This document shows positions 14,671 to 30,232 of a stretch of 64,000 nt of DNA, one piece after another. This stretch comes from Escherichia coli. Its GTDB lineage: Bacteria; Pseudomonadota; Gammaproteobacteria; Enterobacterales; Enterobacteriaceae. How positions within the stretch are numbered: position 1 is the stretch's first letter; each line of letters begins with the position of its first letter. Made by a program: the position numbers and the translations under genes. The notes below the pieces were generated by a model that did not search any database, was not told where the DNA came from, and saw only the letters and a program-made list of their open reading frames with translations. The stretch lies in assembly GCF_003334815.1 (NCBI RefSeq), contig NZ_QOWO01000004.1; one strand, written 5' to 3'.

Positions 14671-15402
14671 ATGGCGCTTTACACAATTGGTGAAGTGGCG
14701 TTGCTTTGTGATATTAATCCTGTCACGTTACGCGCGTGGCAGAGGCGTTACGGATTGCTGAAACCGCAACGGACAGACGGTGGTCATCGGCTGTTCAACG
14801 ATGCCGATATTGACCGGATCCGCGAGATCAAACGCTGGATCGACAACGGCGTGCAGGTCAGCAAAGTTAAAATGCTGCTCAGTAATGAAAATGTTGATGT
14901 GCAGAACGGCTGGCGCGATCAGCAAGAAACATTACTGACTTACCTGCAAAGCGGCAATCTACATAGCCTGCGAACGTGGATCAAAGAGCGCGGTCAGGAT
15001 TACCCCGCCCAGACACTCACCACACATCTGTTTATTCCTCTGCGCCGACGGCTTCAGTGCCAACAACCGACTCTCCAGGCGCTGCTGGCGATCCTCGACG
15101 GCGTACTGATCAACTACATCGCCATTTGTCTGGCTTCGGCACGTAAAAAACAGGGTAAAGATGCGCTGGTGGTTGGCTGGAATATTCAGGATACCACCCG
15201 TCTGTGGCTGGAGGGCTGGATTGCCAGTCAACAAGGATGGCGCATTGATGTCCTCGCCCACTCGCTCAATCAACTACGCCCTGAACTATTCGAAGGCCGT
15301 ACATTGCTGGTGTGGTGCGGTGAAAATCGAACCTCCGCCCAACAGCAGCAACTCACCAGTTGGCAAGAACAAGGCCATGATATTTTCCCACTCGGCATTT
15401 AA
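14671..15402 (+). CDS. mlrA: MerR-family transcriptional regulator (243 aa)
   Basis: N-terminal MerR helix-turn-helix (YTIGEVALLCDINPVTLRAWQRRYGL). Confidence 0.85.
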   Translation: MALYTIGEVALLCDINPVTLRAWQRRYGLLKPQRTDGGHRLFNDADIDRIREIKRWIDNGVQVSKVKMLLSNENVDVQNGWRDQQETLLTYLQSGNLHSLRTWIKERGQDYPAQTLTTHLFIPLRRRLQCQQPTLQALLAILDGVLINYIAICLASARKKQGKDALVVGWNIQDTTRLWLEGWIASQQGWRIDVLAHSLNQLRPELFEGRTLLVWCGENRTSAQQQQLTSWQEQGHDIFPLGI

Positions 15403-15461
15403 TGATTCGTTAACAAATGCGCTTTACTGTACAATCCTTTCGTTAACATAAGGAGTGCATT

Positions 15462-15569
15462 ATGCGCATAGCTAAAATTGGGGTCATCGCCCTGTTCCTG
15501 TTTATGGCGTTAGGCGGAATTGGTGGCGTCATGCTCGCAGGTTATACCTTTATTTTGCGTGCTGGCTAA
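15462..15569 (+). CDS. yohO: 35-aa small membrane protein [35 protein letters not shown]
   Basis: ATG 15462 with AAGGAG 6 nt upstream; 3' end overlaps convergent yehW by 20 nt. Not in the ORF track. Confidence 0.65.
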
Positions 15570-16281
15570 GCGCCTGCACCAGCCTTTCAAACAGGCGGTC
15601 TGCGATGATCGCCGCCAGTGCCACCAGTAACGCCCCCTGGATCACATACGCGGTATTAAATCCGCTAAGCCCGATGATGATGGGCGTACCCAGCGTGCTG
15701 GCCCCTACCGTTGAGGCGATCGTCGCCGTACCAATGTTGATAATCACCGAAGTTCGCACGCCCGCCAGAATCACCGGAGCCGCCAGCGGTAGCTCGACCT
15801 TACGCAGTCGCTGACCACGACTCATTCCCATACCCTTCGCAACTTCTGTCACGCTGGCATCAATCGCTCCCAGCCCGGCAAGTGTCGCCTGCAGGACGGG
15901 CAGCACGCCGTATAGGATCAAGGCGATAATCGCTGGTTGCAGACCAAAGCCGATCACCGGAACAGCAATCGCCAGCACCGCAACGGGCGGAAAAGTCTGC
16001 CCAACGGCGGCAATAGTTTCCACCAGTGGGCGAAATTCCGCGCCCCACGGGCGAGTGACAGCAATTCCGGCACCAGTACCAATGATCACCGCAAACAAAC
16101 TCGAAATTCCCACCAGCCAGAAATGAGCCAGTGCCAGAGCTGCAAAACTTTCTTGCTGATAAACGGGTCGTGGCAGTTGTGGGAACAAGGCAGCAAACAG
16201 CGGCTGGCTGTAAGGCAGCCAGAAAATCAGTGCCACAAACAAAGCAATGAGCCAGAACAGCGGATCGCGCAACATCTTCAT
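15550..16281 (-). CDS. yehW: ABC transporter permease (glycine betaine/osmoprotectant system)
   Basis: ORF track; hydrophobic multi-pass protein; synteny. Confidence 0.85.
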
Positions 16282-19286: not shown

Positions 19287-19429
19287 GATGCTTTCCTCAT
19301 TCTTTTACTGTTGTTTTCAGCGAATTAAGAGAAAAGCATAGTTGATAATGGCGGGGTTAGCTTGAGCGGAAGGATTCAGTTGCAGAATCAGATAAATACT
19401 TAAGAGGCATATTCGGTCCGGCGTTTCCT

Positions 19430-19466
19430 GCCGGATGCGGCGCGAGCGCCTTATCCGGCCTACAAA
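19430..19466. repeat. REP element
   Basis: GCCGGATGCGGCGCGAGCGCCTTATCCGGCCTACAAA matches the REP consensus as I recall it. Confidence 0.8.
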
Positions 19467-23783: not shown

Positions 23784-24716
23784 TTAATCGTTCTGTGCCG
23801 TCTGCCCCGCCGCCGCCATTTGGGCGGCTTTTTGTTTTTTATAGCTCAACGCTGCTGCCGGCACAGGCATCACTTTACCGGTTTCAATCCAGGTACGCAG
23901 GCGGCTGGCATCGGCAAAATGGGTATATTTGCCAAACGCGTCCATCACTACCAGCGCCACCGGTTTATTATTGATAACCGTACGCATCACCAGACAATGG
24001 CCCGCCGCATTGGTAAAGCCGGTTTTGGTTAACTGAATATTCCAGTTATCGCGATACACCAGATGATTAGTATTGCGGAACGGCAGCGTATACGTCGGAT
24101 TAGAGAAGGTTGCCATATCTTCCCGGGTAGTACTTAACTGCCCGATCAACGGATATTGTTTGCTGGCAATGAGCAGTTTGGTTAAGTCACGGGCAGTTGA
24201 AACGTTATGCACCGACAATCCGGTAGGTTCAACAAAGCGCGTGTTGTTCATTCCGAGCGATTTCGCTTTCGCATTCATTGCCTTAATAAAGGCTTTGTAA
24301 CCACCGGGATAATGGTGCGCAAGGCTTGCCGCCGCGCGGTTTTCTGAAGACATCAGCGCCAGCAACAGCATATCTTTACGGCTGATTTCGCTATTCAGTC
24401 GTACGCGCGAATAGACCCCTTTCATCTCCGGCGTCTGGCTGATATCCACTTTTAGTTTTTCATCCAGCGGCAGTCGTGCATCCAGCACAACCATCGCGGT
24501 CATTAATTTGCTGATAGACGCAATCGGACGCACCAGATCCGGGTGGTTCGAATAGATCACTTTGTTGGTATTCAGATCAACAATCATCGCGCTACCGGAG
24601 GCAATTTCCGGTTGTGAAGCGGTGGTAGCGGCTGCCGTTTTCGCAACGGCCTGCGGTGCAAAAGGCACAGCCAGCATCAGGGCCAGGCTAAATAAAGAAA
24701 CTCGAAATTTCGGCAT
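23784..24716 (-). CDS. pbpG: D-alanyl-D-alanine endopeptidase PBP7 (310 aa)
   Basis: Signal peptide; SxxK active-site motif (SISK). Confidence 0.9.
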
Positions 24717-24889
24717 GATGAGCATTCAGATAGTGGTTCACGCGCACGGGTTGCGCACCGCCGGAGTAAGGATTTACTGAGGCTAGCGACGCCATCATAA
24801 CGAGCAAAAAGTGCGATCGTCAAAGGAGAATCGTGAGGAAATGCTGCATTGCTGACATTTACGCCAGCAATGCAACGTCAAAGAACTTT

Positions 24890-25477: not shown

Positions 25478-25646
25478 ACCGCCCCCTTGTTGTGAGTTCA
25501 TGAACCTGACAGTTCAAGTATAAGTCAGCTTGTGATTATTTTTTGTTCGCCCATGTAATTTTCACTGTCTGATGAACGTCCTTTTTCAGCGTGAATGATT
25601 CACAGGGTGTATGCTTACTGGCAACCAAAGGGAGACAGACTGGCCT

Positions 25647-26225
25647 ATGGATCTCAATACACTTATCTCACAATATGGTTATGCCGCGCTGGTGATCGGT
25701 AGCCTGGCGGAAGGTGAAACCGTGACTTTGCTGGGAGGCGTTGCGGCGCATCAGGGGCTATTAAAGTTCCCGCTGGTGGTACTTTCTGTGGCGCTTGGCG
25801 GCATGATTGGCGACCAGGTGCTCTATCTGTGCGGGCGGCGGTTTGGCGGCAAGCTGTTACGCCGTTTCTCGAAACATCAGGATAAAATTGAGCGGGCGCA
25901 GAAACTTATCCAACGCCATCCGTATCTGTTTGTCATTGGTACGCGCTTTATGTATGGCTTTCGGGTGATTGGCCCGACGCTGATTGGTGCCAGCCAGCTG
26001 CCGCCGAAAATCTTTCTGCCGCTGAATATTCTCGGCGCATTTGCCTGGGCGTTGATTTTTACCACTATTGGTTACGCTGGTGGTCAGGTGATTGCGCCGT
26101 GGTTGCACAATCTCGACCAGCATTTGAAGCACTGGGTCTGGTTGATTCTGGTCGTGGTTCTGGTGGTGGGCGTGCGCTGGTGGCTGAAACGACGCGGGAA
26201 GAAAAAGCCGGATCATCAGGCGTAA
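25647..26225 (+). CDS. yohD: DedA-family inner-membrane protein (192 aa)
   Basis: ORF track trimmed to ATG 25647. Confidence 0.8.
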   Translation: MDLNTLISQYGYAALVIGSLAEGETVTLLGGVAAHQGLLKFPLVVLSVALGGMIGDQVLYLCGRRFGGKLLRRFSKHQDKIERAQKLIQRHPYLFVIGTRFMYGFRVIGPTLIGASQLPPKIFLPLNILGAFAWALIFTTIGYAGGQVIAPWLHNLDQHLKHWVWLILVVVLVVGVRWWLKRRGKKKPDHQA

Positions 26226-26237
26226 AACCATTGCCCT

Positions 26238-26270
26238 GGATAAGGCGTTCGCGCCGCATCCGACATCCGG
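26238..26270. repeat. REP-like element (inverted orientation)
   Basis: GGATAAGGCGTTCGCGCCGCATCCGACATCCGG. Confidence 0.6.
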
Positions 26271-26354
26271 AGTACCATGCCTGATACGACGCTTGTGCGT
26301 CTTTTCATGCCGACCAAAATATTACCCAATGAAATATCCACGCACCTCACTGCG

Positions 26355-27168: not shown

Positions 27169-28605
27169 TCAGCGTTTGTAACCCCCGCCCAACGCACCAG
27201 TGAGTTGAATGGAGGCATCCAGCCACTGCCCTTGCAATAACAGGCCATTGGCCCGCTCACGCAGCGCGGGGATTCTGGCTTCGCTGACGCGGGAACCAGC
27301 AATGATGCCCGCGTTAAAGCGCGCCTGCGCAAGACCTACCACACGCAAGGCATCGCGCTCAATTTGCGCCTGATGCTGGTTTTTCTCCGCCAGTGTCTGA
27401 ACCTGACTGGCTGCCCGCGCCACGTCATTCACCGCTTCAACCACCGCTTTGTTGTAGCTGGCGATAGACAAGTTGCTTTCGGCTTTTGCGATATCGAGAT
27501 TGGCGTTAAGACGACCACTATCGAAAATGGGTAGCGTCAGGCCTGCCGTAACGCCCATTTGCTGCGCGGAATGACGGAACAGATCGCTTAAGTGCAACGC
27601 ATCCTGTTGCAGGAAGGCCATCAGGTTGATGTCAGGATAAAATGCCGCTTTTGCCGCATCAATGGTGCTTAGCGATGACTCAACGTACCAGTGCGCCGCC
27701 TGCAAATCTGCCCGCCGGGCCAGTAAGGAGTACCCCAGTTCATCAGGAAGCTGGCTTGCCACTTTCGGCAACGCGACCGGTTTAAGCTTCAATGACTTTG
27801 TCTGGTTATTTGTAAGTGCGCTTAACCGTGCCTCAATAATTTTCATTTTCCCCGCGACATCGTTGAGCTGCTGCCGGGTTTTGCTGGCATTAATATCGGT
27901 TTCCACACCTTCAACTGAAGAAGTAATCCCGTTCTGATATAGCTGGCGATCGGTCGCGATAATGGTGTTCTGCTCTTTTTCTATTTGCTGCAAGACCGTG
28001 TTTAACGCCGCCTGGGTTTGCCACTCCCAGTACAGGCGGGCTACGCTGCCAGCCAGCAATTGGCGGGTTTGCTCGCGTTCCGCCGCCCGTGCTTTAACCG
28101 TACCCAGGCGGGCAGTAACCTCCGCCCGATTCTTTCCCCAGATATCGAGATGCCAGCCCGCCGTTAAGCCAAAAGTACCGTTGGTGTACCACGGGCCGGT
28201 CGTACCTGCGGCCGGATCGTTCAGAGCAAACGGCCCCATTAAGCCTTCTGCCGACATTTTTTGCCGCTCCATATCCGCCGAAAAGTCGATCTGCGGACCA
28301 TCCTGAGTGGCAACTGCCTTCGCCTGGGCTTCAGCTAGCTGAATGCGCTGTTCAGCCACCTGCATATCCGGTGCGTTCTGTAGTGCATTGTTAATTAAGG
28401 AAGTGAGTTGATTATCGTGATACTCCAGCCACCATTGGCTGTCTGGCCAACCATTTTTCAGCGCCGTGGGTAATGCGGTGTCAACTTGTGCAGCGGGCGT
28501 TTGCTGGCTTAACGCCTGGCGGGTTTCATGCATAGGCGCACACCCGGCCAGCATCAGTAACAGCGGAAAACAGGCGATGGCTGGATAAAAGGAATCACGA
28601 TTCAT
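27169..28605 (-). CDS. mdtQ: Outer-membrane efflux factor lipoprotein, intact frame of 478 aa
   Basis: ORF track 27169..28695 trimmed to the Met at 28605; lipoprotein signal with LAGC. Uninterrupted here, whereas I recall the K-12 copy being a pseudogene. Confidence 0.75.
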   Translation of the reverse strand: MNRDSFYPAIACFPLLLMLAGCAPMHETRQALSQQTPAAQVDTALPTALKNGWPDSQWWLEYHDNQLTSLINNALQNAPDMQVAEQRIQLAEAQAKAVATQDGPQIDFSADMERQKMSAEGLMGPFALNDPAAGTTGPWYTNGTFGLTAGWHLDIWGKNRAEVTARLGTVKARAAEREQTRQLLAGSVARLYWEWQTQAALNTVLQQIEKEQNTIIATDRQLYQNGITSSVEGVETDINASKTRQQLNDVAGKMKIIEARLSALTNNQTKSLKLKPVALPKVASQLPDELGYSLLARRADLQAAHWYVESSLSTIDAAKAAFYPDINLMAFLQQDALHLSDLFRHSAQQMGVTAGLTLPIFDSGRLNANLDIAKAESNLSIASYNKAVVEAVNDVARAASQVQTLAEKNQHQAQIERDALRVVGLAQARFNAGIIAGSRVSEARIPALRERANGLLLQGQWLDASIQLTGALGGGYKR

Positions 28606-28828
28606 GGGGGAATAATCAGGTAAGAAAAGGTGCGCGGAGATTACCGTGTGTTGCGATATATTTTTTAGTTTCGCGTGGCAATACATCAGTGGCAATAAAA
28701 CGACATATCCAGAAAAATATACACTAAGTGAATGATATCTTCCGATTTATCTTAATCGTTTATGGATAACGGCAAAGGGCTTCGTTTTTTCCTATACTTA
28801 TTCAGCACTCACAAATAAAGGAACGCCA

Positions 28829-28912
28829 ATGAAAATTATACTCTGGGCTGTATTGATTATTTTCCTGATTGGGCTACTGGTGGTGACTGGCGTATTTAAG
28901 ATGATATTTTAA
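28829..28912 (+). CDS. yohP: 27-aa small membrane protein MKIILWAVLIIFLIGLLVVTGVFKMIF
   Basis: ATG 28829 with AAAGGAA upstream; not in the ORF track. Confidence 0.65.
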   Translation: MKIILWAVLIIFLIGLLVVTGVFKMIF

Positions 28913-29017
28913 AATTAATTAATGTCATCAGGTCCGAAAATAACGAGAATATTTCAGTCTCTCATCCTGTTGCGCTCCTGTCATGTGCATTGCTTCATAT
29001 AATCACTGGCGCAAGGA

Positions 29018-29240
29018 GCGCGCAGGGGGCGGCCAATCGCCGCCGCCCCCTGCACCCCCGGGCTCTGGCGAACAAAATCGCCGCTGCGCGGTGCCCTCGA
29101 CTTATCCCTTACGGCTACCGGGTCGGGCGCGAGGTAACATCCCTGTAAAACGCGCCCTCAGCCCACATCCATGTGGGCTGCCCCGGCCTTCAGGGAACGC
29201 CTCGGCAATTTTGACGCCACCAAACAACCGTGCGGCCTAT
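29018..29240. other. GC-rich structured intergenic element with two perfect hairpins
   Basis: Hairpins at 29022..29053 (12-bp stem) and 29159..29180 (10-bp stem, 2-nt loop) in a visibly GC-rich block; identity unknown. Confidence 0.3.
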
Positions 29241-29284
29241 TGATAAAGAGCTAACACATTGTCAAAAAACATCACTATGGTTTT

Positions 29285-30232
29285 TTAGAGTTTCTCGATA
29301 TCAATTGCCTGAATAGCCCTTGCAATATCAGGGGAATTATTCAACACCCGAACATGCTGAAATAATTCCGTTGCTTCATCGTATTCTTTACGCAAATAAC
29401 TCAACCACTGTTTAATCCGCGCAACGTGATATAACCCGGTATCGCCCTGCTTTTCCAGACGGGTATATTTTTGCAGCAAAGCAACCACCTCCGGCCACGG
29501 CATTCGCGGTTCGTTATATTTTACCACCCGGCTCAGGTTGGGAATATTGAGCGCCCCGCGACCAATCATCACTGCGTCGCAGCCGCTGATCGCCATGCAT
29601 TGTTGCGCGCTCTGCCAGTCCCAGATTTCACCGTTGGCAATCACCGGAATATTCAGCCGCTGGCGAATATCGCCAATCGCCTGCCAGTCAATATGCTCCG
29701 CGCGGTAACCCTGCTCTTTCGTCCGCCCATGCACCACCAGCTCCGTAGCGCCAGCCTGTTGAACCGCATCGGCGATTTCAAATTTCTTCTCACCGCTGTC
29801 CCAGCCCAGACGCACTTTCACGCTGACGGGCAAATGCGCCGGTACAGCTTCACGCATCGCTTTTGCACCCTGGTAGATGAGTTCAGGATCTTTGAGTAAC
29901 GTCGCCCCGCCGCCGCTACCGTTAACCGTTTTCGACGGGCAGCCGCAATTGAGATCCACGCCCCAGGAACCTAACTCCACCGCACGGGCGGCGTTCTCTG
30001 CCAGCCATTGTGGGAACTGACCTAACAACTGCACGCGCACCAGCGTACCAGATGGTGTCCGGCTGGCGTTTTGTAGCTCAGGGCAAATGCGATGAAAGAC
30101 TTTTACCGGCAGCAGTTGATCCACCACGCGGACAAACTCGGTGATGCACAGATCGTAGTCGTTAACTTCGGTCAGCAATTCACGCACCAGAGAGTCAAGC
30201 ACTCCCTCCATCGGTGCCAGTAACACACGCAT
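29285..30232 (-). CDS. dusC: tRNA-dihydrouridine synthase C (315 aa)
   Basis: ORF track trimmed to the Met at 30232 ([11 protein letters not shown]). Confidence 0.9.

Follow-up and report, generated by a model that had tools for sequence, protein, structure and literature searches.

The small inner-membrane protein genes yohO and yohP of Escherichia coli and the conserved overlap between yohO and the transporter gene yehW

Introduction

Several published studies deal with the small membrane protein YohP. Its levels go up in stationary phase, in minimal medium and under oxygen limitation, and it reduces membrane potential and fluidity, which leads to the phage-shock and stringent responses and to what has been called 'metabolic silencing' (PMC12719787). 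SRP/FtsY insert YohP post-translationally via SecYEG or YidC, the yohP mRNA localises to the membrane (PMC7549839), and dimerisation of the protein has been described in the published YohP work. In Salmonella, YohP production is sigma-S-dependent and the transcript was earlier called the sRNA STnc1330 (PMC5437024). The protein has been demonstrated by chromosomal tagging and functional studies, with the tagged form seen in both E. coli and Salmonella (PMC12719787, PMC7549839, PMC5437024).

The second small protein considered here, YohO, is known from top-down mass spectrometry (PMC12529367), and translation of yohO has been recorded by Ribo-seq in a preprint which cites YohO as a known membrane protein after Hemm 2008 (bioRxiv 10.1101/2020.05.05.079178). 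A partner, a phenotype or a topology for YohO was not found in the available literature. At the transcript level, an RNA-seq survey of MG1655 lists yohO-yehW among its 165 convergent excludons, each recovered in at least half of the 58 data sets (PMC12288877).

We analysed a stretch of 64,000 nucleotides from Escherichia coli (contig NZ_QOWO01000004.1), called the window below, which is up to 100% identical to complete E. coli genomes and represents a K-12-like chromosome. A first-pass annotation made from the letters alone had proposed that yohO and yohP are small membrane-protein genes missed by its open reading frame (ORF) track, and that yohO overlaps a convergent gene. We followed up both proposals by comparison across genera.

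Materials and Methods

One genome per species was scanned with Dld, whose gene lies between yohO and yohP, and 10-kb flanks were taken, giving 80 loci. A separate full HMMER scan with YohO gave 17 representatives. The proteins listed by a search for distant YehW orthologues were all at least 78% identical, and the scope of the linkage described below is Enterobacteriaceae.

Results and Discussion

Identification of yohO and yohP

Both genes start with ATG and appear in the ORF list once its minimum is lowered to 20 amino acids, encoding proteins of 35 residues (YohO) and 27 residues (YohP, MKIILWAVLIIFLIGLLVVTGVFKMIF). Their omission from the ORF track was a matter of the length threshold only, as the default list stops at 60 amino acids. 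RefSeq carries both genes at the positions proposed (Table 1), under the names 'protein YohO' and 'small membrane protein YohP', with identical sequences, and the exact sequences also occur in a public protein collection under those names. Both pass the cut-offs of the NCBIfam equivalog models over their full lengths, YohO with 80.1 bits against NF010225 (cut-off 57, residues 1-35 of 35) and YohP with 67.3 bits against NF011345 (cut-off 58, residues 1-27 of 27). The family PF27791 (UPF0387_membrane) is assigned to YohO homologues in precomputed annotations; a local Pfam-A scan of YohO gave nothing significant, a match to B12D being non-significant, and the library used may predate PF27791.

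The single hydrophobic helix proposed for each protein is borne out by Kyte-Doolittle hydropathy, with a best 19-residue mean of 2.41 for YohO and of 2.96 for YohP, one hydrophobic stretch dominating each protein. The plausible ribosome-binding sites of the first-pass annotation could likewise be located, each 6 nt before the ATG (Table 1). An AGGAG-type Shine-Dalgarno sequence precedes yohO in all 20 aligned sequences, which come from about ten genera, and is also found in loci that lack mlrA.

No evidence was found against the existence or identity of yohO and yohP. We conclude, with a probability of around 95%, that they are genuine, previously described genes for single-pass small inner-membrane proteins, each with its own promoter. 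The genes, their translation, the overlap and much of the regulation are already known from databases and papers.

Table 1. Positions of features at and around yohO and yohP (coordinates refer to the window; the last row lists loci of the comparative set)
Feature	Position	Strand	Source or evidence
mlrA, upstream neighbour of yohO in E. coli, outside the conserved unit	14671..15402	+	ORF list; RefSeq
ArcA box ttgttaacgaatcattaa, over the putative -35 region of yohO	15399..15416	-	Identical to the published box; conserved across genera
-10-like hexamer TACAAT (TAYAMT across genera), putative yohO promoter	15430..15435	+	Cross-genus alignment block
Second TGTTAAC element	15442..15448	-	Between -10 and ribosome-binding site; 33 nt from the first
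yohO Shine-Dalgarno AAGGAG	15450..15455	+	6 nt before ATG, read from the sequence
yohO CDS	15462..15569	+	ORF list; RefSeq WP_001216963.1; NCBIfam NF010225; pN/pS
Segment common to the yohO (+) and yehW (-) 3' ends, 20 nt	15550..15569	.	ORF list; same geometry in RefSeq
yehW, last gene of the osmF-yehYXW ABC transporter operon	15550..16281	-	ORF list; RefSeq 'glycine betaine ABC transporter permease YehW'
yohP -10 element CTATACT, sigma-S-type	28792..28798	+	CTAnACT invariant in 16 aligned sequences
yohP Shine-Dalgarno AAGGA	28818..28822	+	6 nt before ATG; purine-rich block conserved there in the alignment
yohP CDS	28829..28912	+	ORF list; RefSeq WP_000691708.1; NCBIfam NF011345; pN/pS
Two strong G+C-rich hairpins downstream of yohP, in a repeated insert	28967..29053	+	Fold -55.7 kcal/mol, z -5.3
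mdtQ-dusC spacers without yohP	L003, L009-L012, L018, L020, L021, L059, L081, L082		

Conservation and selection in Enterobacteriaceae

The yohO gene is present in 39 of the 80 loci and intact in 38 of these, while yohP is present in 31 and intact in every one. Within the species, the yohO region was found in 5,424 of 5,426 complete E. coli genomes; yohP is annotated in every E. coli genome among the matches listed, and the K-12 strains RP437 and J53 carry the yohP region unchanged. Mean pairwise pN/pS is 0.05 for yohP; for yohO it is 0.23 over codons 1-29 and 0.14 over codons 12-29. When the reading is shifted to the +1 or +2 frame, the values range from 0.5 to 4.3 and stops interrupt many or all of the sequences. 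Both annotated frames are under purifying selection across Enterobacteriaceae, whereas the shifted frames are not. The first-pass annotation had named absent translation and non-conservation of the frames as grounds against the genes; the frames proved to be conserved across genera, and comparison with existing annotations and published detections of both proteins (see Introduction) points the same way.

The one damaged yohO lies in Citrobacter amalonaticus AUH_CA_2023_1 (locus L081, 3530-3640), where a single extra T in a run of five shifts the frame. In this locus dusC and mdtQ likewise give split matches, which suggests homopolymer assembly errors, and we regard the loss as either an isolate-level frameshift or an assembly error.

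Among 24 distinct YohO proteins the residues G19, I20, G22, V23, M24, L25, G27, Y28 and I31 are invariant, position 18 admits only G or S, and 23 of the proteins have A at position 26. The core common to the homologues can be written G19-I-G/S-G-V-M-L-A/V-G-Y28. Small residues recur along one face of the helix as (G/S)18-x3-G22-x3-A26, together with G19, G27 and Y28, and a small-xxx-small face of this kind is typical of helix packing, as in transmembrane glycine zippers. The single-pass helix of YohO would most likely act through this invariant small-residue face, which may pack against another transmembrane helix, either that of a second YohO or one belonging to a larger membrane protein.

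In E. coli, yohP is annotated between mdtQ and dusC. E. albertii and ten Citrobacter loci lack it in an mdtQ-dusC spacer that is otherwise intact (Table 1), so the gene appears dispensable in some lineages. The distance from yohP to dusC is 42-132 nt in most non-Escherichia loci and 379-407 nt in Escherichia. An insert of about 300 nt (28930-29285) lies between the two genes and is specific to Escherichia among the sampled loci. E. coli genomes contain similar sequence at a median of 3 places, and about 3,480 of 5,426 genomes match 80% or more of the segment. The hairpins listed in Table 1 belong to this insert and contain a perfect 12-bp inverted repeat at 29022..29053; Rfam gave only a weak, sub-threshold TwoAYGGAY match there. 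At yohP itself Rfam gave no match. A type I antisense antitoxin was considered for yohP and rejected: one promoter-like site was found on the minus strand (28928..28901) against 1.9 expected by chance, and the downstream flank is not conserved between genera.

On the other side of yohP, the K-12 record treats mdtQ (27169-28695, minus strand) as a pseudogene with a frameshift, and the element TTTTTTAGTTACGCGTGGCAATACATC just upstream of it is retained in all genera, including those without yohP. Elsewhere in the window, the Rfam cis-regulatory motif Peptidase-S11 RNA (RF03039) was strongly matched at 24721-24801 on the minus strand with 72.8 bits against a gathering score of 34.8. The motif sits at the 5' end of the minus-strand ORF 23784..24725, which, from its position in K-12, we take to be pbpG. 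Sub-threshold matches to naRNA4 (RF02564) after osmF (19381-19460) and after the ORF 25611..26225 (26234-26311) are intergenic and are read as REP-type extragenic repeats.

Promoter regions

Upstream of yohP there is a -10 element whose form, CTAnACT, we take to be the sigma-S-type consensus. An element of this type fits the sigma-S-dependent production of YohP in Salmonella (PMC5437024).

The region upstream of yohO is a module of about 60 nt conserved across genera, genomes without mlrA included, in which TTAATGnTTCATTAAC, the -10-like TAYAMT, GTTAACA and AGGAG follow one another. A consensus scan called no sigma-70 promoter upstream of yohO; the hexamer TACAAT, which the cross-genus alignment marks as the likely -10 element, escaped the scan because no good -35 is present. 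TTAACA was considered as the -35 and rejected, the spacer being 14 nt, and 6 nt in three Citrobacter species.

Phased TGTTA-like repeats first raised the suspicion of an ArcA site at this position. An ArcA ChIP peak named 'yohO' with the box ttgttaacgaatcattaa (14.2 bits) had in fact been reported by Park et al. 2013 (Tables S1/S3/S4, PMC3798270), and the box in the window, identical to it, has two direct repeats 11 bp apart under the ChIP peak. A direct repeat, TTCGTTAACA, occurs twice upstream of yohO with a spacing of 33; its second element is conserved in most genera and may be an additional ArcA half-site. The module (15399-15448) is kept where mlrA is absent, so that in E. coli the last bases of mlrA double as the yohO operator. 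Control of yohO by MlrA was also considered, from the resemblance of TGTACAAT to an MlrA half-site, and was rejected: between genera it is GTAYAAT alone, and not TGTACA, that is conserved, and genomes without mlrA still have the module.

On arrays, yohO gave log2 values of 7.17 in the wild type and 7.77 in the arcA mutant, a small effect with both classed as lowly expressed (PMC3798270). In Shigella grown without oxygen, yohO changed by a log2FC of -2.96, about 8-fold down, with no fnr effect listed (PMC4229854). ArcA binding at yohO is known, and repression by ArcA is plausible. With the ArcA box sitting over the -35 region, yohO would be expressed mainly under aerobic conditions.

Overlap of yohO and yehW

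The 20-nt overlap of the yohO and yehW 3' ends proposed by the first-pass annotation was recovered and has the same geometry in RefSeq. In all loci with an orthologous yehW 3' end in the stored sequence the overlap measures 17, 20, 23 or 26 nt in one relative phase, and in the alignment the yehW stop lies without exception within two yohO codons, those for Phe-Ile or, in Siccibacter, Val-Ile. Wherever the yehW 3' end is visible, that is in 39 scan loci, the window and the loci L083-L091, yohO adjoins yehW, the exception being L092. Among the loci with a yehW 3' end in the stored sequence we found no yehW without yohO. Nine loci that seemingly had yehW paralogues without yohO turned out to be an artefact, as about 4.6 kb inserted between osmF and bglX had moved the pair off the flank. 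The insertion itself (at about 2900-7500 in L009, L020, L021, L030, L031, L033, L035, L054 and L075) occurs in several Citrobacter, Kluyvera, Leclercia, Silvania and Enterobacter genomes.

Where the shared bases vary, they do so at the wobble position of yohO codons, and this corresponds to the second position of yehW codons. The tails encoded by the shared segment comprise 4 YohO variants with a pN/pS of 0.33 and 10 YehW variants with a pN/pS of 0.76. Within the shared bases, yohO is the more constrained frame.

As the coding sequences overlap, transcription of either gene necessarily yields RNA antisense to the other; the antisense overlap of the 3' transcript ends that the first-pass annotation had deduced is already listed for MG1655 as a convergent excludon (PMC12288877). 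We searched just past the yohO and yehW stops for an intrinsic terminator and found none that was convincing (fold z about -1), so the transcripts probably run well into the opposite gene.

Three readings of the conserved overlap were weighed, and the one we rate most likely, at roughly even odds, is that it is purely neutral. By this account the overlap would be a frozen accident: with each stop inside the other gene, only a duplication of the shared segment can part the two. What lies upstream of yohO does vary: besides mlrA it may be a gene for a TonB-dependent receptor (L083) or btsS (L087, L089 and L091), and in these four loci, which lack mlrA upstream of yohO, the overlap with yehW is unchanged. 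A constant junction with yehW is what would be expected if breaks inside the overlap are selected against. In the exceptional locus L092 (3260-5900; compare L091, 4203-4234), on a single metagenomic contig, an insertion of 2.46 kb lies between yehW and yohO and encodes a short-chain dehydrogenase and an AMP-binding enzyme. It is flanked by a 32-bp duplication that corresponds exactly to the shared segment. Neither yohO nor yehW is broken there, which indicates that selection retains both proteins and that the overlap itself can be lost. The free drift of the YehW tail is also as expected of a neutral overlap. Against neutrality stand the probable read-through past both stops and the RNA-seq survey that classes the pair as overlapping (PMC12288877).

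Next in order comes the possibility of a working excludon, in which yohO and osmF-yehYXW would antagonise each other's expression through convergent transcription and the formation of an RNA duplex. We think it unlikely, although several observations suit it: the published listing of the pair, an overlap and phase conserved across genera, the lack of nearby terminators, and the ArcA box with its ChIP peak at yohO (PMC3798270). The listing, however, rests on coverage overlap, which is unavoidable with overlapping coding sequences, and we found no reciprocal-expression or cleavage data for yohO-yehW in the literature. The strong purifying selection on YohO means that yohO is not merely an antisense RNA, and L092 again shows that the overlap can be lost. 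Were mutual antagonism real, it would link redox state, through ArcA on yohO, to a sigma-S-controlled osmoprotectant transporter.

We place lowest the idea, argued by analogy with KdpF, AcrZ and MgtS, that YohO might serve the OsmF-YehYXW ABC transporter as a small accessory subunit or as a modulator; it is improbable on present evidence. In its favour, yohO abuts yehW throughout the loci named above, and the conserved small-residue face of the helix suits helix packing. Yet lock-in by the overlap explains the linkage equally well, the genes are convergent and not co-transcribed, and their regulation looks different. Whereas yohO has ArcA, yehZYXW is under published sigma-S and osmotic control. 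Nor were data on an interaction between YohO and the transporter found in the literature. Taken more broadly, a tie of YohO to OsmF-YehYXW, whether as an accessory or regulatory subunit or via antisense transcript coupling, is a doubtful proposition that the arrangement of the genes suggests and that none of the available papers makes. If it held, ArcA (redox) control of yohO would feed into osmoprotectant uptake.

The last alternative concerns the genes themselves, namely that one or both ORFs are open by chance, within non-coding DNA or sRNA genes, and are untranslated; the ORFs are indeed very short and in Salmonella the transcript of yohP was originally entered as a non-coding sRNA, STnc1330 (PMC5437024), but pN/pS values far below 1 in the annotated frames only, the conserved ribosome-binding sites of both genes, YohO seen by mass spectrometry (PMC12529367) and tagged YohP seen in E. 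coli and Salmonella make it exceedingly improbable.

We therefore return to yohO and yohP as genuine small-protein genes that a length threshold had hidden and a careful reading recovers. To what was known, the comparison adds four modest points. Across Enterobacteriaceae the interlock of yohO with yehW is conserved, phase included, no matter which gene lies upstream of yohO; the frame of the small ORF is the constrained one within the shared bases; in one natural variant the two genes have come apart through duplication of the shared segment; and the ArcA box belongs to a conserved yohO promoter module. These points are a concrete, testable start toward the function of YohO, for which the only lead that merits testing is the constant linkage of its gene to the OsmF-YehYXW locus.

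Comparison with known systems

YohO is the type member of the NF010225/PF27791 family, with the same position between mlrA and yehW, the same length and a single helix, and we see no difference from it. In size, single helix, small-residue packing face and an adjoining transporter gene it is like KdpF, AcrZ, MgtS, CydX and MgrB, some of which are co-transcribed with their partner or share its regulator. In YohO the gene is instead convergent to that of the transporter, and the likeness is one of resemblance only, not of membership.

YohP, a full-length match to NF011345, is the very protein that has been studied, with no difference in the protein. It resembles the type I toxins TisB, Hok, Ibs and Ldr in being a small single-helix inner-membrane peptide that lowers the membrane potential and is stress-induced. 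Unlike these, its depolarisation is non-lethal according to the literature, and it is without a conserved antisense RNA partner.

As in other convergent excludons, the pair yohO-yehW consists of convergent genes with overlapping transcripts, and it is listed in the E. coli excludome. It differs in that the coding sequences themselves overlap, which makes the overlap of the transcripts unavoidable and leaves mutual exclusion a putative property of the pair.
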